Notes: a model not told the origin generated them from the letters alone. A DNA stretch of 20,000 nucleotides from an uncultured virus (IMG/VR IMGVR_UViG_3300017970_000189) (IMGVR_UViG_3300017970_000189), one strand, 5' to 3'; counted from the stretch's first letter, positions 1 to 20,000 are shown. Translations and numbers: made by a program.

Positions 1-175
1 TTCCAATTCACCTCAAACCAAAATCACACGCACTGTTCGCTCGAGGCTGTTTAGATATGATCCGGAGGAGTGGATAACCGCCATGACCAACTCTCTTCCG
101 GCATCACGATCTCCCAACCTCGGACTCGTGAGCCACTCGGGCTTCTATCCCCTTATACTCTTTAGGTGTGTCAGA

Positions 176-829
176 TTAGGACACACTCTCCTTTTTCTTC
201 TGTCTTTTTTGTTCACCTAAACTCAGCACACGGAATTTCGCCCTGCTCTCATGGAAGGCCTTCCACCGGTCCTCTAGGTTTGGATCCGCAATTTCCCTCT
301 TCCCCTCTATCCACGGCCCCAGCGGGAGATCATGCTTTTCCAATCCTTCGACTTCCATGAACTCCATGAGAATACTTTCAAAATCTTCCCCCACGTACTC
401 CACCACCGCCTGCTCCCTGGTCATTCTCTCTCCGCTCACCGGGCATTCGATCTCTTCGTCCCACAAAAACACCTTCTCCTTCGCCTCCCAAATCTGCCGC
501 TCCACCGCCCTCCTGAGCGCCTTCCTGAAATCCCCCAGCTCCGATGGCTCCGTCACGCACTTGAGATAACTAAAATCCGTCTCCGTCCCATCCACCCGGA
601 TCACCTCGAAGCACCGATTCCCATATTCCGAGGTCGTCACCCGGAACGCCTTCACCCCAGGTCCGATCTTCCTCTCCCCCTCTGGATGCCGCTTCACCAG
701 TTCCAGCAGAAAAACATGCTCCGGAGGGTCAAGTTCTACGCCCAAAGTCGCCGCATGAAGCATCCCCTTGATCCTGGCCAGGAGCTCCTTTTTCGTTTTG
801 AAGACCTCCTTGCCGATCCGGATTTCCAT
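176..829 (-). CDS. DCL/DUF3223-family protein with a C-terminal degenerate HNH-like domain (217 aa)
   Basis: Motifs LVKRHPEGERKIGPGV and YGNRCFEVIRVDGTETDFSYLKCV match the DUF3223 (DCL) signature; C-terminal CPVSG...VVEY...W..FH...RVL resembles an HNH-like fold. Starts 2 bp after the helicase stop. Confidence 0.8.
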   Translation of the reverse strand: MEIRIGKEVFKTKKELLARIKGMLHAATLGVELDPPEHVFLLELVKRHPEGERKIGPGVKAFRVTTSEYGNRCFEVIRVDGTETDFSYLKCVTEPSELGDFRKALRRAVERQIWEAKEKVFLWDEEIECPVSGERMTREQAVVEYVGEDFESILMEFMEVEGLEKHDLPLGPWIEGKREIADPNLEDRWKAFHESRAKFRVLSLGEQKRQKKKESVS

Positions 830-831
830 CT

Positions 832-2517
832 CTAACCTACTTGCTCCGGGTTCGGCACTTCTTCAGGAACCGGATAGTCATAAAAATCCTTCGCCCAATT
901 CACCCGGTTTTCCCAGCAAATATTCACGTCTGTCTCCGTCCGGGTCACCGCCACATAAGCCAGCCGGTGCTCCGTCTCAAAGTCCTCCCAGCACCGTCCG
1001 CTCATCTCCGTGAACACCACCGTCTGCTCCGCCTGTCGCCCCTTCGCCCCGTGAATCGTCGTGATCCTCGGAATCTTCCTTTCGTCCTCACCCTCGTATT
1101 CCAGCGCATACCCGTTCGCGCTCAATCGATCGTAGTACCTAAAATCGTTCGTATAGTTCAGGACCTGATAGTTTCTCTCCGCAATCACGCGAGCCCCTTC
1201 CCCGGTCAGAATCTTCGCCTGCACCAGATCCTGCAAGCTCACCGCCCCTTTCACCTTCTCCTCCAACCTGCTTTTTGCCCCCCTCACCAGCAGGTCGACC
1301 TTGATTTTCGTTCCCTCATCGACAATATGGGATTTCATCCCATCCTCGATAAGGACCGCTGCCTGGGACCCGCTAATGGTCTTTCCTGCGGAAAGATCCT
1401 GAATAGCCTCCCAGATCCGAATCCTTTTCGTGAACGACAAAGGATCTAGCCCTCTCTCATTTCTAAATGGAAGCCCGGCATCGATATAAGCCTGCGCCAC
1501 ATTCTGACACCCCAGGACATGCCGGTGCAGGATCATGATATCCCCAGGCATCGGCTCAAACGTCCCGGTCACCAGAATCCTCCCCTCCCGTCCACTCACC
1601 CCAATGATCTCCTTGGGATGTCGATGAGCCACACGATTGATAATCTGCGTAGAGAAGTTCACGATGTTTTGCCCAAAACGCTTCGTTTGGCGAAGCTGGA
1701 TTTGGATAGACGCACGCTTCGCTCTCTCGAGGAAAAGCTCAGCGCTCGCGCCGCTCCACTTGTAGATAGCCTGGTCGTCGTCCCCCAACCACCAGATCTC
1801 TTCTGCCTTGGAAAGTACGCGGTCGATTAGGAGGTGATGGATCCCAGAAAGATCTTGGCATTCGTCTAACAGCACGTATCGGATGTCATCGAAGGCAGGC
1901 ATCTCCCGGACCCCGTACTCCAGCATATCCGTGAAGTCGATCAGGCCGTCCGCCAGTTTGAACTTCTCGTATTTCTCCACGAAGTTCTGGTAGATGTTGA
2001 GCCCCATGTTCTGGACTCCCAGCATCATAAGTCCTTCGTTGTTCGGCATCACCCGGGCCTTGTCGAGATCGTCGACCGACTGGGCCTTCGTTCGGGTCAT
2101 TTGGTACGCTGCGAGCGCGGTATCCCATTCCGTACGACCTTGGTTCTTCATCTGGGCGTAAACCTCGGCTAGGTCTTCCCAATCGTAGACCGAATAGGTC
2201 CCGTCCATACTGAAGACCTTGGCGAACTGTTTCATGTCGCCGGTATTGATCAACCGAACGTCCGCCCGGTTCTTATGGAGCCCCCTCCAACAGAGACTGT
2301 GAACCGTCCGGAAGTAGGGAAACATCTGGATCATCCGTGTATCATCTTCAGTTTCAAAGACCTTCACCGCAGCAGCCTTCGCCGCGGCTTTCGTGAAGGC
2401 TAAGAAGGCGATCCTCGTCGGATCGACTCCAGATTCCATCCAATTGCGTACCAATGTGATAGCACTTGACGTCTTCCCAGTACCAGGAGGGCCCCATACT
2501 ACTCGTTCCAAAGGCAT
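832..2517 (-). CDS. Superfamily 1 UvrD/REP-like DNA helicase, phage type (561 aa)
   Basis: Walker A GPPGTGKT, motif Ia AFTKAAA, FRTVHS, Walker B LLDECQD, motif III GDDDQAIY, motif IV QTKRF, motif V TIHGAKG, motif VI YVAVTR. Confidence 0.93.
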   Translation of the reverse strand: MPLERVVWGPPGTGKTSSAITLVRNWMESGVDPTRIAFLAFTKAAAKAAAVKVFETEDDTRMIQMFPYFRTVHSLCWRGLHKNRADVRLINTGDMKQFAKVFSMDGTYSVYDWEDLAEVYAQMKNQGRTEWDTALAAYQMTRTKAQSVDDLDKARVMPNNEGLMMLGVQNMGLNIYQNFVEKYEKFKLADGLIDFTDMLEYGVREMPAFDDIRYVLLDECQDLSGIHHLLIDRVLSKAEEIWWLGDDDQAIYKWSGASAELFLERAKRASIQIQLRQTKRFGQNIVNFSTQIINRVAHRHPKEIIGVSGREGRILVTGTFEPMPGDIMILHRHVLGCQNVAQAYIDAGLPFRNERGLDPLSFTKRIRIWEAIQDLSAGKTISGSQAAVLIEDGMKSHIVDEGTKIKVDLLVRGAKSRLEEKVKGAVSLQDLVQAKILTGEGARVIAERNYQVLNYTNDFRYYDRLSANGYALEYEGEDERKIPRITTIHGAKGRQAEQTVVFTEMSGRCWEDFETEHRLAYVAVTRTETDVNICWENRVNWAKDFYDYPVPEEVPNPEQVG

Positions 2518-2540
2518 ACGTTCTCACTTTTAAGAATCAT

Positions 2541-2737
2541 GTATGCGCGCGCATACGCGAGACGTAACGTTACAAGGTAACAAGTCCTTATGCGCGCCGG
2601 ATAAGTGTAACACCGTTACGGCGTGTGTTACGTTACTGTGACGGATTCCTCCTATGATGTAACGTTGTAACGCTGTAACGGCTTATATACGATTTTACCA
2701 TTGACGAATTATGTCCTCGCGTATGCGCGCGCATACG
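2541..2737. other. Putative origin of replication
   Basis: Non-coding gap between primase and helicase. Two copies of the 16-bp palindrome GTATGCGCGCGCATAC (2541-2556, 2721-2736) form a 21-bp inverted repeat around ten GTAAC/GTTAC pentamers (2564-2679). GC skew changes sign across this region. Confidence 0.7.
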
Positions 2738-2753
2738 TGTTTTGGTTAAATCC

Positions 2754-4634
2754 TTACGAATCTGCATCTGGAGCGTTTCCTACGGGAAAAAGGTCCTCAG
2801 TGGGGTCCTCAGGTACGACTACCGGGGTGGGTTTATGGTCGGAAGGGGTAACGGCTGGGGTGGTTGGGGAGGGGGTCCCGTGACCGTTCCCGTTACCGTT
2901 TGTTCCTCCACCCTGGATGATGGACTTCATCCAGAGACGTTGGACGCCGCCGCCCCTGCTGAAGCGTTTTGTATCGCTCTTCCAGCCCATGTCCTTGAGC
3001 TTCTCCCGAAGGTGATTTTTAGTGATTTTGGCATCGGTTTCGCCCATGAACTCGTGAAACGTGGCGAACTTGAAGAACTGGTGCTCGTCGTCGAACCCGG
3101 GGTACTTCTTGAGGAGCCCGACATCCGGGTCCTTCTTGGCTTCCGCGAGGAATTCTTCGAGGGCGAGTTCGATGGCTCCGGCCGGCCGGGAGTCCTCTGG
3201 AGCCTCCTTTTCTTCGTAAAGATTGTTCTTCTTGGCCTCGTCGATCATGGTCATCCACTCCGAATCGTGAAGGTCCGAGGTAAGGGGTAGGCCATGTTGG
3301 TCAAGGACTTCCTGACGGAAGTCCTTGAATTTTGAGAAGCGGGAGTTGTCCAGGGTGATGATGTATTCCTTGGCCTCCCTTTCGAGAGTAACGGTCCAAC
3401 GGGATGGCTGGGACTTGAACTGGATGAGATGGAGGAACTTGAAGTCGACGGGTTGTTCGTCTCGGCGATGGCCTTTTTTCCTGGGAAGGCGGGTATTGAT
3501 GCTCTTCAAAAGTTTTTCGTAGCTGGCCCGGATCGGGCCTTCCGGGTGCTTGTCGTGGATGAGTTCTTCGATATGCTTCCTGCCGGTAAGACCCTTGAGA
3601 TTCAGATTTTTGTAGGTATCCGCGACGTCCTTGAGCCTTTTTTTCGTGTCGCCTTTGTTGAGTTCAGAGGCAATTTCGACGACTTTTCTCGTGCAGCTTT
3701 CCTTGACCCCGGTCCGGATGAACCAGCCGGCGACGGACATGGCCATATTGTGGCGATCGCCTTCGATCCAGATCTGGGAGACGAGTTTGCCGAGTTCTTG
3801 GATGGTTTCCTCGGGGAGTTCGATCGTGGGGGTGGGGAGGGGATCTGGAGTACCTTCCGGGGAGGCAGCCTGTTGGAGGAAGGTCTCGGAAGGGGTGGCA
3901 TCGGCCTTGGGGGTAGCTGGCGAAGAGGGAGTCGGGGAGGCGGAGGGTGAGACGGGAGCTCCGACCAAGCGGCGTTCTTCCTCGATCGGGAGGAAGTCGA
4001 AATCATCCAGGTTGTAGCGGAATTCGGGATGCCACCAGGAGATTTCGACGGTTCGTACGGGATCGTAATTGAAATTTGTGGTCCAGGGGATGCGGAGGAC
4101 GCGGGCGAGATCGATGGACTGGGTATCGGCGCCGAAGAATTTGGCGAGGGCCCGGTTGATGGCCTTGAGGTGCCAGAGATCGTTGCCGGTGACGAGCTCC
4201 TTGGTGAGCCAGAAGACTTGGATACCGCCTCCCGAGCGGACGATGATGGAAGGTTTCCGGGGGAATTCGAGGAGGGCTTTCCGGGCGATTTCCTCGGGGA
4301 CGGTTTTGCCTTTGTGGCCCTGGTCGGCAAAGTCGAATTCGGCCCAGATGCAGCCTGAGGAGAGGGCGAGGGCTTCGGTGCCGCGGGAGTTTGAGGCCCA
4401 TTTTTCCCGGCGGAGGCAGACGCCCATGTAGACGTTGTTCGAGCGGTTGTGATTGGTAGCGGAGGAGAGGAAGCTGTCGATGGAGTCCGGGTAGGAGAAG
4501 GGGTACGCGACCTTGAAGCCCTCTTTGCGCAGTTTCGAGCCGATGATGGTGAGTTCTGCTACGCCCTTCTCATCGCCCCAAATCGCCTGAAGGAACTCCT
4601 TAGCCGATATTTGAGGAACGGCCGGGGGAGCCAT
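2754..4634 (-). CDS. RepB'-like (AEP superfamily) DNA primase with PriCT-like helical domain and uncharacterised C-terminal region (626 aa)
   Basis: Motifs NVYMGVCLR, IWAEFD, PSIIVRSGGGIQVFW and DLARVLRIPWTTN are typical of RepB primase-like domains; Pro/Ser/Thr linker; EGDRHNMAMSVAGWF resembles PriCT-1. No helicase Walker A motif. Confidence 0.8.
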   Translation of the reverse strand: MAPPAVPQISAKEFLQAIWGDEKGVAELTIIGSKLRKEGFKVAYPFSYPDSIDSFLSSATNHNRSNNVYMGVCLRREKWASNSRGTEALALSSGCIWAEFDFADQGHKGKTVPEEIARKALLEFPRKPSIIVRSGGGIQVFWLTKELVTGNDLWHLKAINRALAKFFGADTQSIDLARVLRIPWTTNFNYDPVRTVEISWWHPEFRYNLDDFDFLPIEEERRLVGAPVSPSASPTPSSPATPKADATPSETFLQQAASPEGTPDPLPTPTIELPEETIQELGKLVSQIWIEGDRHNMAMSVAGWFIRTGVKESCTRKVVEIASELNKGDTKKRLKDVADTYKNLNLKGLTGRKHIEELIHDKHPEGPIRASYEKLLKSINTRLPRKKGHRRDEQPVDFKFLHLIQFKSQPSRWTVTLEREAKEYIITLDNSRFSKFKDFRQEVLDQHGLPLTSDLHDSEWMTMIDEAKKNNLYEEKEAPEDSRPAGAIELALEEFLAEAKKDPDVGLLKKYPGFDDEHQFFKFATFHEFMGETDAKITKNHLREKLKDMGWKSDTKRFSRGGGVQRLWMKSIIQGGGTNGNGNGHGTPSPTTPAVTPSDHKPTPVVVPEDPTEDLFPVGNAPDADS

Positions 4635-4702
4635 CCGGATCCTCTCTCACACTCCAAGACTTCAGAATTCGTTTAACGACGCATCTCGAGGTCCCTTGGG
4701 AA

Positions 4703-4860
4703 TCCGGGAACCACGAAAGCCATGCCGCCGCGCGCGTTCGGTCGCTTGATCCAGACGTGCTCGGTCTGCGCACTGAACACGGAGGAAGAAGGCGAGGCGG
4801 AACGACGGCACGGCTTTCGGGATTCGCGGACCATTTCGCTCTCTCCGGTTCAGTGCGCAG
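4703..4860 (-). ncRNA. Candidate structured 5' leader (cis-regulatory RNA) of the primase gene
   Basis: Inverted repeat 1: 4766-4784 with 4843-4860 (13 bp perfect plus 5 bp after a 1-nt bulge). Inverted repeat 2: 4703-4730 with 4803-4830 (23/28 Watson-Crick; 3 of the 5 mismatches are G-U on the - strand). Confidence 0.55.
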
Positions 4861-4865
4861 GTCAA

Positions 4866-4893
4866 AGTGTATCCCTGAGGAAAAAAGAGTCAA
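4866..4893 (-). promoter_or_regulatory. Sigma70-like promoter for the replication operon
   Basis: On the - strand TTGACT (4893-4888), 16-bp spacer, TACACT (4871-4866), with AT-rich sequence upstream. Predicted start near 4860 coincides with the first base of the leader hairpin. Confidence 0.6.
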
Positions 4894-5019
4894 GGCGATT
4901 CGTTCATATTCTCTTAAAAATTTGATCGCTTTTTGTGTGTCAGCGAATTAGGAGTCACTAGGAATTGTGTTCGACGGTTTTGAGTGGTGGAGAGAGGGGC
5001 TGGATTCGGTGGGTGAGTA

Positions 5020-5028
5020 TGATAGAAT
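5020..5028 (+). promoter_or_regulatory. Extended -10 promoter, probably giving a leaderless transcript
   Basis: TG-a-TAGAAT at 5020-5028, 6 nt before ATG 5035; no Shine-Dalgarno sequence in between. Confidence 0.5.
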
Positions 5029-5034
5029 CGCGGC

Positions 5035-5589
5035 ATGCCGATCGTGCTCTACACGAACGAAAAGCTTGAGGTGGGGAGCGTTGTGGACACGAGGAAATTT
5101 TGTGGGCTGAACGCGGAGGCGTTGAGAGGGGGAACGCGGGAGGAGCAGGAGGTGGAGGGTTTTCTGGAGGAAGTGAGGGAGGAACATTTTCCGGAAGCGC
5201 CGGATCGGCTGTGTTCGGTGGTGGGGATTCCGATCCCGAGGATGACGGGGCGCGTGAGGGAGGGGGATGTTGCCAGCGGAAAATGGTTTGCATTCACCGA
5301 GATCGAGACTCCCGAGCCTCCAGGGTGGGGAGAGTATTGTTACCACATTGTGGGCGAGCGGGGCTCGAAGCGTGTTTCGGTGGATGAGGGGTGGGTGGGG
5401 AAACTGGTGGAAGATTGGAATGGGCTTCGGGGAAGTTTCGAGAGGTGGAAACTGGCGAGTGACTACTGGGCGGGGAAGATATTTAGGGAATATTCGGTTC
5501 TCATTCAAGGGCCGATCAGGGTGGTGAGCGAGTGCGGAAGAGCGCACGGGGGACGCAGATTGAAGCCGATGATTTGGGAGGCGGACTGA
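5035..5589 (+). CDS. DUF2441-like protein, possibly ADP-ribosyltransferase-like fold (184 aa)
   Basis: EGFLEEVREEHFPEAPDRL and ASDYWAG...VLIQGPIRVV resemble the E..R...FP..PSRL and A..YW.G...L..G.V.V pattern of DUF2441 proteins. Confidence 0.5.
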   Translation: MPIVLYTNEKLEVGSVVDTRKFCGLNAEALRGGTREEQEVEGFLEEVREEHFPEAPDRLCSVVGIPIPRMTGRVREGDVASGKWFAFTEIETPEPPGWGEYCYHIVGERGSKRVSVDEGWVGKLVEDWNGLRGSFERWKLASDYWAGKIFREYSVLIQGPIRVVSECGRAHGGRRLKPMIWEAD

Positions 5590-5590
5590 G

Positions 5591-5947
5591 ATGAGATATC
5601 GGGTGGTGAATTTGCTGGGGCAACCGCTGCAAACGACTCCGTACAGCCAGGCCCAGCGTCAGCATCTGCCGTGCCCGGATCTTCCTGCCGAAGGGGCGCC
5701 GCCGGAGAGTTGCGCGCAGGTTTCGGACGGTGGGATCATCTGCGAGGACGGGACGTATTATCCGTCGTATTGTGCGGCGCCGAGGGTGACGGAGCCGAGC
5801 CTGGCGCCTTATGTTCAGAGCCAGGGGTTTTATGTTCCGCAGCCGCCGGCGAAGGCGAGTCTGGAAGCGGAGACAGGGACGGCATTTCCGTGGCTTGCGG
5901 TAGGGATTTCCGCGGCGAGCATCGTGGGATCGATCCTCTTCAGCTAG
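5591..5947 (+). CDS. Hypothetical protein with 4 Cys and a C-terminal transmembrane anchor (118 aa)
   Basis: ATG 1 bp after the upstream stop, preceded by GGAGG; C-terminal FPWLAVGISAASIVGSILFS is hydrophobic. Confidence 0.75.
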   Translation: MRYRVVNLLGQPLQTTPYSQAQRQHLPCPDLPAEGAPPESCAQVSDGGIICEDGTYYPSYCAAPRVTEPSLAPYVQSQGFYVPQPPAKASLEAETGTAFPWLAVGISAASIVGSILFS

Positions 5948-6145
5948 AGCAAAGCAGCGGCGGAAAAGCCTCCAGGAAGCGCGAAATCGATCCGAGACGA
6001 GTCCCAGGTCGTCTTAGCCCGGGGAAATGCGTTAAATCCAAACCGAAAACTGAGAGATGGGTTAGGTGTGCGCGCCTGGCGTCCGGTGAAGCAGACGCCT
6101 GAGAGAGGTGGATCGGGCAGCATGTCCTATAGGACGGGAGGGAGG

Positions 6146-6574
6146 ATGGCAAAAGAACCCTTCGAAAGAGATCTTTCACCCAAAGTGAAGCTCTTCTACG
6201 GCTACAAGGATGGCCGGTGTGAGCTTAAGATCATGACTCCCATAGGACTAAGTGTGCCTGTCACAGTTCCTTCAGAAGCGATCCCCACGATCAAGAAGGT
6301 TTTTGATGAGGCGTACCTATGGGACATGAAGGCGGAGGAGGAGCGGAAGGATGGGAAAGGAGATCTGGAGCGGGTGATCGAGGTGAGGGCGAAGGTGGTG
6401 TACGGTTTCCCGGATGGGCATGTGGTGATTTCGGTGAGGCCGGTGAAGGTGGCTCCGTGGTTGTCGGTGGAGATCACGCGGGAGGAGTTGATTGAGGGGA
6501 AGAAGGCGATGGACGAGGTCAATCTATGGAACCTGATGCCTGTGGAAGTGAGGGAAATGCAGGGTGCGGCGTAG
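6146..6574 (+). CDS. Hypothetical protein with two tandem ~70-aa repeats (142 aa)
   Basis: In the 6068 ORF frame; ATG 6146 follows GGGAGGGAGG. The halves align: ER...K..YG..DG...KK..DE..LW. Confidence 0.75.
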   Translation: MAKEPFERDLSPKVKLFYGYKDGRCELKIMTPIGLSVPVTVPSEAIPTIKKVFDEAYLWDMKAEEERKDGKGDLERVIEVRAKVVYGFPDGHVVISVRPVKVAPWLSVEITREELIEGKKAMDEVNLWNLMPVEVREMQGAA

Positions 6575-6596
6575 GTTGGAGGGGTTTTCATGAGGT

Positions 6597-6805
6597 CCTA
6601 TAGGTGTGATGGGGCTAAAAGGAGAGCGGAATTGAAGGTTTCCTATGGACACCTATAGGAGAGATGGTGAACGTAAAAAAAGGGGCGGGACCTATAGATG
6701 GGCGGGTGCTAGGAGGCGAGTAGGCGTGTCCTATAGGTCCGCTAGGAGATTGAGCGAATTTCGCAGGAAAACGGTCTTTTTTGGCGTGAGACTGATCTCC
6801 TATGG
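6597..6805. repeat. Cluster of CCTATAGG palindromes and variants
   Basis: CCTATAGG at 6597, 6652 and 6730; CCTATAGA at 6691; CCTATGG at 6642 and 6799, in a largely non-coding gap. Confidence 0.75.
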
Positions 6806-6831
6806 AAGGGAGATTTGTAATGGAGGGGGCA

Positions 6832-7161
6832 ATGAATCTAAGTAGTCAGCCGAATCCAGGTGATCAGCCGAGTCCCGGCGTGTTGAACGCAGGCGGGTTA
6901 AATCCAAGCGATCCGGAGGAACTGTTAAACCGACACTGCGAATGGCTTAAGACCATCGCTAACTATCTTTGTGTGGGGTGTAATAGGCCGAGGGAACGGA
7001 AGACGCTGCGGATAATCGGGCTTTGGTTTCCGGCGAAGGAGTACAAAAAGTCGGGAGTGACGAGCTATTCGCTCTGCAACGAGTGTGAGAAGCTGACTAA
7101 AAAGGAGATTTACGACAGGGTGGAGGCTTGGGGGGTGGAAAGAGGATATTTCGAGCTGTGA
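6832..7161 (+). CDS. Small zinc-finger protein (CxxC...CxxC); start may be 6802, 6820 or 6832
   Basis: CVGC and CNEC pairs; GGAGG precedes ATG 6832; stop overlaps the next GTG start (GTGA). Confidence 0.7.
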   Translation: MNLSSQPNPGDQPSPGVLNAGGLNPSDPEELLNRHCEWLKTIANYLCVGCNRPRERKTLRIIGLWFPAKEYKKSGVTSYSLCNECEKLTKKEIYDRVEAWGVERGYFEL

Positions 7162-15220: not shown

Positions 15221-16144
15221 ATGGCTGGAGAGGTCCTCAAATTCCCGAGGCCGGAAAAGGATAATTCCGGGCAGAAGGAGAGAGAACTTACCTCCGGCGT
15301 TCGGGAACCCAAGGTTCTCGAAAAGTTCGACCTGGGACGAAGCCAGGACCTCCTCGTCGTCGTCCAAAGAATCACCTCGGGCTGCCAGGCACTCCTTGAG
15401 TTCATCCACGCCAATCGGGATCTGTCGAGAAAGGCCGGAATCGAGACGATCGCTATCGAACTCGCTGCCTCCCTGGAAGGGGAGCCTTTCGAACGGATCA
15501 TGGATGCGCTCGAGGAGGCCGCAGGAAGCGGAGAAGAGCTTCACCTCACCACGGAAGGCCTCGCCAGACTCCGGAGGATGGAGACGCTTCTGGCCGAGGC
15601 ATCGAACAACATCAACCGCTTCACCTATGGGGGCCAAAGACTTGCGGAGGTCGCTCGGGCTCGGGCCGACCGGGAGGTCGGCCGGGCGAAGCTCGGGCTC
15701 AAGGTGGCGGAGAAACGCCTGGAGGCGCTGCGGGAAAAATACAAGATCCGGGATTACGCCGCGGAGAAGGAGATCGCGCTCATGGCGGGATCCCCGGAGT
15801 GGATGACCGTTCAGGCCAAGGAACGGGTGCGTCTGGAAGGGGAGCAGCGGAAGGTCGAAATCGAGATTGCGGAGAAGAAACTGGCCGCGCTTCGGGATGA
15901 GGCGGAAGTGCAAGGCTATGCGGCCCATAGAGAAGCGGACATCCTGGCCGGAATAGATGAACTGAACGACGTCGAGCTGGCAGAAGCCGCTCCTATAGAT
16001 CGCCAAGCAGCGCCTGGGATGAACTCGAACGCTCTCCTATGGGGGTCGGTGATTGCTTTCGGCGCCGTGGCTGTCACGCTCGTGATCATCGCAGCAACAA
16101 CGGCAGCGTCGAGAGAAAAAGCCGCCCCCCATGAGCGACCTTGA
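15221..16144 (+). CDS. Coiled-coil protein with a C-terminal transmembrane helix (307 aa)
   Basis: GGAGGGAG RBS; heptad-like E/K/R/L region; hydrophobic [22 protein letters not shown] near the C-terminus. Confidence 0.8.
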
Positions 16145-19100
16145 TAAAAACATGCGGGGTGGCCGGATTCGCCGCCTGGGCGAACCGGAAGCTCCGGATG
16201 ATGCCGCGCGCCTGCAGGACATCTACTCCATCGTAGGGACCTGCATCCAGGGTCTCTCTGGGCGCGAGGTATTTGCAGGATTCGCCGGCCGCGGTTCGCC
16301 TGGCGTGACGGGGCCTCCCGGCCCCTCCGGCGTCACCGGACCGCCGGGAACGGCGACCGGAGCTCAAGGGGCGACGGGAGCCCAGGGCGCCACGGGTGCT
16401 CAAGGCGAGACGGGCATCCAGGGCGTCACGGGTCCCCCGGGTCCACAAGGACCGCAAGGACCGCAAGGACCCCAGGGTCCTCAAGGATTTCAAGGACCCC
16501 AAGGGTTTCAGGGCGCTCAAGGTCCGCAGGGATATCAGGGTCCGCAGGGCGGCTTTGGAAATCAGGGTTTCCAAGGGTCACAGGGCTTCCAAGGTCCTAT
16601 AGGACCTCAGGGTCCGCAAGGTCTGCAAGGACCGCAGGGACCGCCTGGAACTCAAGGACTTCAGGGTTTTCAAGGTCCGCAGGGACCTCAGGGACCGCAA
16701 GGGTTTCAGGGGCCGCAGGGTCCTATAGGAGTACAGGGCGCTCAAGGTTTCCAAGGCCCTCAGGGATCGCTCGGGCCACAGGGTTTCCAAGGGCCTCAAG
16801 GTCCTATAGGAGTACAGGGCGCTCAGGGCCCGCAAGGTCCGCAGGGCCCAGCCGGCCCACAGGGCCCTCAAGGGCTTCAGGGACCCCAAGGCTTCCAAGG
16901 ACCGCAGGGTCCGCAGGGCTTCCAAGGACCCCAGGGTTTCCAGGGCCCACAGGGTCCGATCGGGTTCCAGGGCCCGCAGGGACTCCAGGGCCCGCAAGGA
17001 TTTCAGGGGCCGCAGGGTCCTATAGGAGCTCAGGGCGCTCAAGGTTTCCAAGGTCCACAGGGACCGCTCGGGCCACAGGGCTTCCAAGGGCCACAGGGTC
17101 CGATTGGATTCCAAGGAGCGCATGGCACTCAGGGTTCTCAGGGCGCACAGGGACCCCAGGGCCCGCAAGGCCCGCAAGGACTTCAGGGTCCTCAGGGATT
17201 CCAGGGTCCACAAGGTGCGCAGGGCTTCCAAGGACCCCAGGGCTTCCAGGGCCCACAGGGTCCGATCGGTTTCCAGGGACCTCAGGGCCCGCAGGGACTC
17301 CAGGGTCCTCAGGGTTTCCAAGGCCCGCAGGGCTCGATCGGATTCCAGGGCGCTCAAGGTTTCCAAGGCCCTCAGGGTCCGCTCGGGTCACAGGGTTTCC
17401 AAGGGCCACAGGGTCCGATTGGATTCCAAGGAGCGCAGGGCACTCAGGGTTCTCAGGGCGCACAGGGACCTCAAGGACCACAGGGTCCACAAGGACCCCA
17501 GGGTCCGCAGGGACCGCAAGGACTCCAGGGCCCTCAGGGATTCCAGGGCCCGCAGGGCTTCCAAGGGCCCCAGGGATTCCAGGGTCCGCAGGGTCCGATC
17601 GGGTTCCAGGGACCTCAGGGCCCGCAGGGCCCACAGGGACTCCAGGGCCCGCAAGGATTTCAGGGGCCGCAGGGTTCTATAGGAGCTCAGGGCGCTCAAG
17701 GTTTCCAAGGACCGCAGGGACCGTTCGGGCCACAGGGCTTCCAAGGGCCACAGGGTCCGATTGGATTCCAAGGAGCGCAAGGCGCGCAGGGATCTCAAGG
17801 CCCACAGGGTCCACAAGGACCCCAGGGTCCGCAGGGCCCACAGGGACCTCAGGGCCCGCAAGGACTTCAGGGTCCTCAGGGGTTCCAGGGTCCACAAGGT
17901 GCGCAGGGCTTCCAAGGGCCCCAGGGATTCCAGGGCCCACAGGGTCCGATCGGTTTCCAGGGACCTCAGGGCCCGCAGGGACTCCAGGGTCCTCAGGGTT
18001 TCCAAGGGCCACAGGGTCCGATTGGATTCCAAGGAGCGCAGGGCACTCAGGGTTCTCAGGGCGCGCAGGGACCTCAAGGCCCACAGGGTCCACAAGGACC
18101 CCAGGGCCCGCAAGGTGTTCAGGGCCCTCAGGGACTTCAGGGACCCCAAGGATTCCAAGGTCCGCAGGGGCTGCAGGGCTTCCAAGGACCCCAGGGATTC
18201 CAGGGACCTCAGGGTCCGATCGGTTTCCAGGGACCTCAGGGTCCGCAGGGACTCCAGGGCCCGCAAGGATTTCAGGGGCCGCAGGGTTCTATAGGAGCTC
18301 AGGGCGCTCAAGGTTTCCAAGGACCGCAGGGACCGCTCGGGCCACAGGGCTTCCAAGGGCCACAGGGTCCGATTGGATTCCAAGGAGCGCAGGGCACTCA
18401 GGGTTCTCAGGGCGCACAGGGATCTCAAGGCCCTCAGGGTCCACAAGGCCTGCAAGGAGCGCAGGGACCTCAAGGATTCCAGGGTCCCCAAGGCGCTCAG
18501 GGCTTCCAGGGTCCTCAGGGTTTCCAGGGCCCGCAGGGACCGATCGGCTTCCAGGGTCCACAAGGACTCCAGGGACCCCAGGGACCTCAGGGTTTCCAAG
18601 GACCGCAGGGCTCGATTGGATTCCAGGGAGCGCAGGGCACTCAGGGTTCACAGGGCGCTCAAGGATCTCAAGGTCCTCAGGGACCACAGGGTCCTCAAGG
18701 ATTCCAGGGTCCCCAAGGACCACAGGGCGCGCAGGGTAATCAGGGTAATCAGGGGACGCAAGGCGTTCAAGGTCCTCAAGGTCCGCAGGGACCACAAGGG
18801 CCTCAGGGACTTCAGGGCCCTCAGGGATTCCAGGGTCCTCAAGGTGCGCAGGGCTTCCAAGGGCCCCAAGGTTTCCAGGGCCCGCAGGGCCCGATCGGAT
18901 TCCAAGGACCTCAAGGACTTCAGGGTCCCCAGGGTCCTCAGGGATTCCAAGGCCCGCAGGGCTTGATCGGATTCCAGGGCGCGCAGGGCGCTCAAGGATC
19001 TCAGGGCCCGCAGGGCCCACAAGGACCGCAAGGTCTCCAAGGACCACAGGGCCCACAGGGCTTCCAAGGGCCGCAGGGCCCACAAGGATTCCAAGGTCCC

Positions 19101-20000
19101 CAGGGTTTCCAGGGCCCGCAGGGACCGCTCGGGTTCCAGGGCGCGCAGGGACTTCAGGGGACGCAGGGCGTTCAAGGCCCGCAGGGTCCACAAGGACTTC
19201 AGGGCCCTCAGGGATTCCAGGGTCCTCAAGGTGCGCAGGGCTTCCAAGGACCCCAAGGTTTCCAGGGCGCGCAGGGACCGCTCGGGTTCCAGGGACCTCA
19301 AGGACTCCAAGGGCCACAGGGATTCCAAGGGCCCCAGGGTTCGATCGGATTCCAGGGCGCTCAGGGTCTTCAGGGACCTCAAGGCTTCCAAGGTCCTCAG
19401 GGATTCCAGGGTCCGCAGGGCCCGCTCGGATTCCAGGGAGCGCAAGGTGCGCAAGGTGCTCAGGGACTACAAGGTCCGCAGGGTCCGCAAGGACCACAAG
19501 GTCTCCAAGGTCCGCAGGGTCCGCAGGGCTTCCAAGGACCACAGGGCGCGCAGGGACCTCAAGGCTTCCAGGGACCCCAAGGTTTCCAGGGTCCGCAGGG
19601 ACCGATTGGATTCCAGGGGCCTCAGGGACTCCAAGGGCCACAGGGCTTCCAAGGACCTCAAGGCTCGATTGGATTCCAGGGTGCGCAGGGAGCTCAAGGC
19701 TCTCAGGGTCCGCAAGGTCTACAGGGTCCGCAAGGTGCGCAAGGACCGCAGGGCGCGCAAGGACTTCAGGGACCACAGGGACCACAGGGACTTCAGGGTC
19801 CCCAAGGATTCCAAGGGCCACAAGGTGCTCAAGGATTCCAAGGCCCTCAGGGATTCCAGGGTCCACAGGGTCCGCTTGGGTTCCAGGGACCGCAAGGACT
19901 CCAAGGGCCGCAGGGCCCACAGGGATTCCAAGGACCGCAGGGCTCGATCGGATTCCAGGGAGCGCAGGGTGCGCAGGGTGCTCAAGGATCTCAGGGACTA
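16131..20000 (+). CDS. Giant collagen-like fibre protein, 3'-truncated by the window (>=1290 aa)
   Basis: Manual translation from ATG 16131: [31 protein letters not shown]...GSPGVTGPP...GPQGFQGPQ. No stop seen; Gly phase at 16359 matches Gly phase at 19995. Absent from the ORF track because there is no stop. ATG 16152 is an alternative start. Confidence 0.93.
16359..20000 (+). repeat. 9-bp GGN-NNN-CAR coding tandem repeat with higher-order units of ~260-350 bp and ~610-660 bp
   Basis: GGTCCGATTGGATTCCAAGGAGCGCA recurs at 17097, 17412, 17754, 18015 and 18366; TATAGGAGCTCAGGGCGCTCAAGGTTTCCAAGG recurs at 17021, 17678 and 18290. Confidence 0.9.

Follow-up and report, generated by a model that had tools for sequence, protein, structure and literature searches.

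Can the RNA in front of a phage primase gene hold a structure that governs replication? For a few enterobacterial plasmids it is textbook knowledge that the structure of a leader RNA controls synthesis of the replication initiator; in uncultured phages such control is, to our knowledge, almost unexplored. The question is raised here by a 20,000-nt stretch of DNA (the window, in what follows), which reads as part of an uncultured virus-like or phage-like element from peat. The sequence of this phage-like replicon, which comes from peat metagenomes, is carried by four runs, all of them DNA. An earlier note on the window described two helices with interleaved arms upstream of a primase gene and proposed a new cis-regulatory RNA with crossing or mutually exclusive helices. 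This was a fair description: the structure is conserved with compensatory changes and has no match in Rfam. We conclude that the primase leader probably consists of two long interlocked RNA helices kept by relatives, and that it probably represents a new regulatory RNA.

The primase gene, its promoter and its relatives

The leader lies in a 400-bp gap that separates two divergent gene sets, directly upstream of the primase gene (2754–4634, minus strand). The minus strand also carries the genes for a UvrD-type helicase (832–2517) and a DUF3223 protein (176–829), while plus-strand genes run from 5035 onward, the last of them coding for a collagen-like tail-fibre protein. The primase has 626 amino acids, with a probable RepB'-type primase domain at the N terminus: its N-terminal 200 residues match RepB'-type and phage DNA primases, the protein matches the PHROG family ‘DNA primase’ (2.3e-11), and residues 8–213 could be placed on annotated phage and plasmid primases by tblastn. 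The Pfam model PF16793 (RepB'-type) scored 17.5 bits on the window's protein, below its cut-off of 24.3, and was matched at E ≤ 0.01 by 17 of 39 members of the primase family (best, 1.5e-07). This family comprises about 50 proteins, whose conserved N terminus backs the start codon at 4634. Apart from the RepB'-type primase family, the window protein has no other family match, and no PDB sequence match was obtained for it.

On the plus strand, 14 ORFs between 5035 and 16144 were tested; 13 of them gave no PHROG match at E ≤ 0.001 and none gave a Pfam match at E ≤ 0.01. The tail-fibre protein (16131–20000), open at the window end and at least 1290 amino acids long, is full of collagen-like repeats and matches many PHROG tail-fibre families. 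The divergent promoter region, between the −35 hexamer of the leader and the first plus-strand ORF, is bracketed by an inverted repeat of 17 nt with 82% complementarity (4895–4911 and 5015–5031), which may be an operator.

Alignment-based scans of metagenome, genome and viral contigs revealed three further family members among the matches listed, L001, L161 and L081. The last is cut at the N terminus and was left out, so that the comparison set consists of the window, L001 and L161. The primase of L001, from a 78.6-kb metagenome contig, is 38% identical to that of the window; the primase of L161, from a 236-kb IMG/VR record (CheckV completeness 90), is 44% identical. In both relatives a UvrD-type helicase gene follows the primase gene and a DinG-like helicase gene precedes it on the same strand, with a gap of about 270 nt between the DinG-like helicase and the primase. 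The upstream neighbour thus differs, being a divergent operon in the window and a DinG-like helicase in L001 and L161. The UvrD-type helicase of L001 (4710–6719) contains an intein with a LAGLIDADG endonuclease domain, and that of the window (832–2517) does not.

A sigma70-like promoter was found on the minus strand at 4866–4893, with the −35 hexamer TTGACT (4893–4888), a 16-nt spacer and the −10 hexamer TACACT (4871–4866). It is the sole such site in 4400–5200, where shuffled sequences average 0.2. L001 has TTGACT-16-TAGACT at the same aligned place, and L161 has TTGATC-16-TAGACT, which is below the threshold of the promoter scan; both hexamers are conserved across the three sequences (alignment A2). 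The first arm of the helices, 1a, begins 6 nt past the −10 hexamer in the window and 7 nt past it in each relative, in agreement with the earlier placement of this arm at the predicted transcription start. From its sequence, this promoter should start transcription at about 4860–4858. The same scan of 4400–5200 revealed no terminator-like site in the leader, and an intrinsic terminator or attenuator was rejected on these grounds. What had been called a primase leader is indeed borne out as the 5′ leader of the primase gene: positions 4860–4635 of the minus strand would form an untranslated leader of about 226 nt in the primase mRNA, transcribed from its own conserved sigma70-type promoter.

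Interleaved helices in three diverged leaders

The order of arms given in the earlier note, 1a, 2a, 1b, 2b on the minus strand, was reproduced together with all coordinates and counts. Helix 1 joins 1a (4860–4843), which starts at the predicted 5′ end of the transcript, to 1b (4784–4766) through 18 bp and has one bulge, in the 3′ arm; its duplex energy is -33.0 kcal/mol on either strand. Helix 2 joins 2a (4830–4803) to 2b (4730–4703) over 28 positions, 23 of them Watson–Crick pairs, 3 G-U pairs and 2 mismatches. Calculated duplex energies of helix 2 are -44.4 kcal/mol on the minus strand and -37.5 kcal/mol on the plus strand, so the G-U pairs are functional on the minus strand only, as had been claimed. 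Between 2a and 1b lies a CU-rich linker (4785–4802).

Such helices are improbable by chance. Among all inverted repeats within 150 nt in the 20 kb, helix 2 exceeds the others in length and only the core of helix 1 is perfectly complementary; among 82,775 window pairs scanned per strand, helix 2 ranked second in strength on the minus strand. The best helix of the leader (-44.1 kcal/mol, compared with -28.1 in shuffles, sd 2.7) and the best second helix interleaved with it (-39.1, compared with -17.8, sd 8.2) were each reached by none of 150 dinucleotide shuffles. The nested fold of a 247-nt stretch is unexceptional (z = -1.81, with 11 of 200 shuffles folding equally well), since a nested fold counts just one of two crossing helices.

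The same architecture occupies the same genomic place in the diverged relatives, where the gap before the primase gene aligns to the window leader with a mean column identity of 62%. Blind helix searches returned a helix of -46.2 kcal/mol with an interleaved one of -37.7 kcal/mol in L001, and -43.7 with -37.9 kcal/mol in L161; in neither case did any of 100 shuffles reach either value. As natural controls we took 220 stretches of 260 nt from other loci. The weakest best-helix energy among the three leaders (-43.7 kcal/mol, L161) was reached by 1 of the 220 and the weakest second-helix energy (-37.7 kcal/mol, L001) by none; no stretch reached both together. Helix 2 extends over 28, 28 and 21 positions in the window, L001 and L161, with one or two non-pairing positions in each, and the linker between 2a and 1b measures 18, 15 and 20 nt. 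An AAUG and the core of arm 2b, CGGCGGCA, are invariant in the alignment of the three leaders.

RNAalifold recovered helix 2 as the consensus structure. In alignment A3 (25 pairs, 75 cells, 500 shuffles), 92% of helix 2 cells are paired, compared with 83.6% (sd 2.4) in shuffles, none of which reaches the observed value; sliding the partner by 1–3 columns lowers pairing to 35–43%. Both partners have changed in five pairs, of which two show three pair types; 40 of 500 shuffles reach this number of double changes, and the covariation score of 0.467 (0.300 in shuffles) is reached by 5 of 500, values that carry little statistical power because they come from only three sequences. For helix 1, MAFFT alignments A4 and A5 split or shifted arm 1a and gave no common register, and covariance model R2 retained the faulty one, since the stems differ by small insertions. 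We read covariation of helix 1 in our own ungapped register, counted from an invariant AAC/GTT at the top. In this register the lower stem has 13 of 13, 10 of 10 and 11 of 12 Watson–Crick pairs in the three sequences, and positions 4, 5, 7 and 12 have changed on both sides, giving 3–4 double changes. Arm sequences differ among the three leaders, and pairing is retained in both helices.

Over the three sequences helix 2 contains 11 G-U pairs and 2 A-C mismatches, or 9 and 2 when shared positions are counted once. The excess of G-U over A-C favours an RNA of the primase sense strand over a signal in duplex DNA.

In a second peat sample (run X2), a strain variant carries changes at 4658, 4666, 4667 and 4693, and has none in 4703–4820, which covers arms 2b and 1b and most of 2a. 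The variant is a single contig at a depth of 5.3, and its pattern is weak evidence for a selected structure.

A single-protein scan of IMG/VR gave no further primase relatives. When the leader alignment served as nhmmer query against 240 loci and later against 21, the only matches were L001, L161 and L253, the last being a second fetch of the L161 record. The 21 loci were those found when the core of helix 2 was run as a DNA pattern over IMG/VR; among them the leader profile matched L253 only. Covariance model R1, built on helix 2, found no further member in the window and 260 loci (1.25 Mb), its best other match (E = 0.021) being in a pattern-picked locus; the 236-kb record and the genome containing L081 likewise gave no second copy. 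The primase family was not found in 400 other genomes of the phylum of that genome, and blastn and tblastn against phage and plasmid records returned no full-length relative.

A probable cis-acting leader and its rivals

Between arms 1a and 2a starts a small ORF of 53 codons (4673–4834, minus strand; AUG 4834–4832, stop 4675–4673), codons 2–10 of which are spanned by arm 2a. It is preceded by a purine-rich Shine–Dalgarno-like tract, beginning GGAGAGAG (4836–4845, minus strand), which falls into the upper extension of helix 1. All three sequences have, between 1a and 2a, a GGAG-containing purine tract followed 7–13 nt later by an AUG, and in all three the GGAG pairs with CUCC of the 15–20 nt linker to give an extended helix 1 of -41.7 (window), -38.0 and -40.5 kcal/mol. 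The ORFs have 53, 20 and 40 codons, and conserved blocks are read in different frames, which indicates that leader nucleotides are conserved for pairing and not for a peptide; a conserved protein-coding region was rejected for the same reason. The small ORF gave no Pfam match. If it is translated, the act of translation would matter and not the product. Its stop codon lies 38, 84 and 26 nt before the primase AUG, and the distance of 84 nt in L001 argues against simple translational coupling. The primase gene has its own Shine–Dalgarno-like sequence, GAGAGAGG (4641–4648, minus strand), 6 nt before the AUG, and purine-rich tracts precede the primase AUG of L001 and L161 likewise. Just upstream of its primase Shine–Dalgarno tract, L161 carries two TGTAACG repeats (2460–2480), whose likeness to iteron cores raises the possibility of initiator binding at this place too.

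On balance, we favour a cis-acting leader that sets primase output through the structure of the mRNA 5′ end and gated ribosome entry at the small ORF. The leader would be a selected RNA structure of two long helices with interleaved arms. Helix 1 would start at the very 5′ end, its upper extension tying the GGAG before the small-ORF AUG to the CU-rich tract, and helix 2 would join bases just past this AUG to a segment about 100 nt downstream. The fold would then act in cis on the amount of primase, through stability of the mRNA 5′ end and ribosome entry at the small ORF, and translation of the latter would open arms 2a, 1b and 2b and bring ribosomes closer to the primase start. Both helices are predicted to form in vivo and to affect primase synthesis, and a role in replication control is suggested by the position of the leader.

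How the two helices would share one molecule can be considered from their energies and linkers. The arms of helix 1 and helix 2 share no bases. Nested folds with helix 1 only and helix 2 only have -104.9 and -103.1 kcal/mol in the window, -91.2 and -96.4 in L001, and -78.7 and -89.9 in L161, placing the two states within 2–11 kcal/mol of each other. Summed helix energies compare with the nested minimum as -77.4 versus -71.8 kcal/mol in the window and -72.2 versus -74.6 in L001; the summed figure for L161 used core arms only. With linkers of 12–46 nt (L1), 15–20 nt (L2) and 16–35 nt (L3), both lower stems could, in our reasoning, exist together. By the same reasoning, the extended helix 1 and the full helix 2 should be unable to coexist, and a 28-bp helix inside the loop closed by helix 1 would face a winding problem that might be overcome because arm 1a has a free 5′ end. 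Further points weigh against the favoured reading. In either proposed state the initiation region of the small ORF is partly hidden. Whether helix 1, helix 2, both or neither were imposed, or arms were masked, modelled access to the primase ribosome site showed no consistent change, and the best upstream pairing partner of this site lies at a different place in each of the three sequences.

More tentatively, the leader could be an H-type pseudoknot or a two-fold flip and thereby an undescribed class of replication-control RNA in uncultured phage-like replicons of about 30 kb to 236 kb, a proposal that we find doubtful. As a pseudoknot, both helices would be present on one molecule, and stems of at least 13 bp and at least 21 bp would cap the primase transcript at its 5′ end; such a fold would be feasible because arm 1a, as the free 5′ end, can thread in last. 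Alternatively, the leader would flip between two folds of nearly equal energy. Coexisting helices would stretch what counts as a feasible pseudoknot, and alternating ones would make a switch whose arms share no bases.

The long helices can also be read as static processing or stability signals and not as a switch, helix 2 and the extended helix 1 being targets of RNase III; by cutting off the 5′ domain, the enzyme would determine how long the primase mRNA lasts or how well it is translated. RNase III cleaves about 20 bp or more of near-continuous double-stranded RNA, and its cleavage in phage early leaders sets mRNA half-life or translatability in just this way. The helices of 18–28 bp with one or two internal mismatches present in all three sequences would suit the enzyme (helix 2, long enough for a substrate in each sequence, makes nearly three turns), as would the finding that imposed helices had no consistent effect on access to the ribosome site. 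The reading also fits the scans of the three leaders, which found no terminator and, on the antisense strand, no promoter-like or terminator-like site, by simple consensus scans that miss weak or non-sigma70 promoters. However, independent cleavage sites need no interleaving, and the arm order and the short middle linker are kept in all three sequences; the conserved GGAG and AUG between the arms would be left unexplained as well. We regard RNase III targeting as a rather unlikely account of the leader.

An arrangement in which segments 1a and 2a precede 1b and 2b is awkward within one molecule and simple between two. The 5′ part (1a and 2a) might accordingly be split off to yield a small RNA that binds arms 1b and 2b of other transcripts, a cis-encoded immunity or copy-number RNA by analogy with the CI RNA of P4. 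The arms of the P4 CI and C4 systems are far shorter than those found here. Location in a primase operon leader would be shared with P4, going by the excerpted account of that system (PMC4825925). Against this, the leader matches neither C4 nor CI nor another family of Rfam, 2a is not followed by a terminator or a recognisable processing signal, and P4 employs one segment with two targets and not two arm pairs. A released small RNA is improbable.

Could the repeats act as DNA? They might be inverted half-sites for a DNA-binding protein or single-strand hairpins used by the primase at an origin. RepB'-type primases of IncQ plasmids do start at single-strand hairpin sites, and half-sites of a dimeric protein, specific to each relative, would change together too. 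Nevertheless, the G-U over A-C excess is strand-specific, which is unexpected for duplex half-sites; interleaved arms of 18–28 nt at a spacing of 70 nt do not look like operators; and helix 1 starts at the predicted +1 in all three sequences. In addition, a much better origin candidate exists at 2517–2754, with the same layout in each relative, which makes a DNA role of the leader very improbable.

This 237-bp gap between the primase and helicase genes is, judging by its sequence, probably an iteron-type replication origin. It holds 7 of the 13 CGTTAC sites of the window, in both orientations (expectation for the entire 20 kb, 2.66). The CGTTAC sites are flanked by two identical copies of a perfect 16-nt palindrome (2541–2556 and 2721–2736), no helix in the window is stronger than the one formed by the flanks (-49.9 kcal/mol on the plus strand), and the cumulative GC skew has its minimum here. 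An iteron-like origin at this place weakens the idea of the leader as the origin, which was rejected. The corresponding gaps contain CTAACA-type repeats in L161 (4780–5125, at least 8 copies by eye) and GTCGGTAT-type repeats in L001 (4546–4710, 4 copies); different repeats in the same layout fit origins specific to each element. Positions 1–7000 of the window have a very strong GC skew, from -0.35 at 1–1000 to +0.33 at 5001–6000, with a sign change near 2500–3000; the coding strand of the primase gene is C-rich and that of the helicase gene G-rich.

Finally, the notion of a small protein gene (53 aa, 4834–4673) with incidental helices, to which the AUG and upstream purine-rich tract in all three sequences would be suited, is scarcely credible, given peptides of unequal length with no conserved frame over the conserved nucleotide blocks, the missing Pfam match, and changes that preserve pairing and not codons.

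The cis-acting leader that we favour belongs to a promoter–leader–primase–origin–helicase module that occurs in replicons of very different size. Here the L161 record of 236 kb is rated 90% complete, and the likely source contig of the window has about 30 kb (29,959 nt). Two long crossing helices are unusual in themselves, and the unit travels with its own promoter before a primase–helicase–origin module.

Comparison with known leader RNAs

Rfam was searched, as the earlier note had suggested; nothing in the window reached the gathering score, and 4550–5050 gave no match even at E ≤ 5. The novelty of the leader therefore holds with respect to Rfam families, and a riboswitch-like aptamer was rejected. 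No curated Rfam family of P4 CI or P1 C4 immunity RNA matched the leader either.

Among phages, the pseudoknot of T4 gene 32 and the RNase III site of the lambda N-leader are structures close to or at the 5′ end of a replication or early mRNA that set translation or stability; they are short pseudoknots or single hairpins, unlike the leader described here. In IncI1, IncB and IncL-M plasmids, a short loop contact is made beside the rep ribosome site. Here, in contrast, the helices have 18 and 28 bp, and arm 2b stops short of the primase AUG by 68 nt in the window and by 31 and 46 nt in the relatives.

Plasmid leaders control the synthesis of replication initiators by stem-loops, leader peptides and pseudoknots, as outlined in excerpts of three accounts (PMC8053102, PMC12365149, PMC5304414). 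According to two of these, also in excerpt, the rep leaders (repZ/repA) of IncI1, IncB and IncL-M plasmids combine a leader peptide, an antisense RNA and a pseudoknot (PMC8053102, PMC12365149). As far as these excerpts extend, the likeness lies in a structured leader of the initiator gene, a short internal ORF and a crossing pairing proposed as control; the differences are that no sequence, Rfam or protein homology was found here, and that the ORF neither overlaps nor abuts the primase gene, from which it is separated by the gaps given above. The earlier interpretation stands in part, as a conserved and probably novel primase-leader RNA, and its comparison with IncI/IncB plasmids is retained as an analogy only, in view of the length of the helices, the position of the ORF and the failure of the simple consensus scans to find an antisense promoter.

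In R1, with its CopA/CopT-tap system, and in IncI2, synthesis of the initiator needs translation of a leader peptide that starts in or next to a stem-loop, and in the IncI2 repR–repA leader the protein PcnR stabilises the first stem-loop and blocks the leader-peptide start (both from excerpts of PMC8053102). The start of the small ORF in or by a stem-loop is a likeness to both. Coupling in these plasmids, as the excerpts describe it, involves a leader ORF that overlaps the rep start, as opposed to a gap of 26–84 nt here. By analogy, the leader would resemble plasmid rep leaders in function, and it belongs to none of those families.

In P4, the excerpted source reports, complementarity of the CI RNA with seqA and seqC in the leader of the alpha primase operon shuts off the replication genes (PMC4825925). 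Shut-off there is described as premature termination via a processed small RNA, in contrast to the two arm pairs and lack of a terminator-like site here. We nevertheless see in the P4 CI RNA, by analogy, the closest phage precedent for complementarity inside a primase-operon leader.

REx-C modules of Pseudomonas plasmids are, in the excerpts of PMC5304414, portable units of a promoter, stem-loops, an optional leader peptide and a rep ribosome site that are placed before unrelated rep genes. As depicted there, they rely on local hairpins and a putative antisense RNA rather than on long interleaved helices, and no sequence similarity to them was found. The likeness, so far as the excerpts allow it to be drawn, is that the unit described here retains its own promoter while its upstream neighbour changes. 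By this analogy, REx-C would be the closest concept for a promoter-plus-leader unit such as the one in front of these primase genes.
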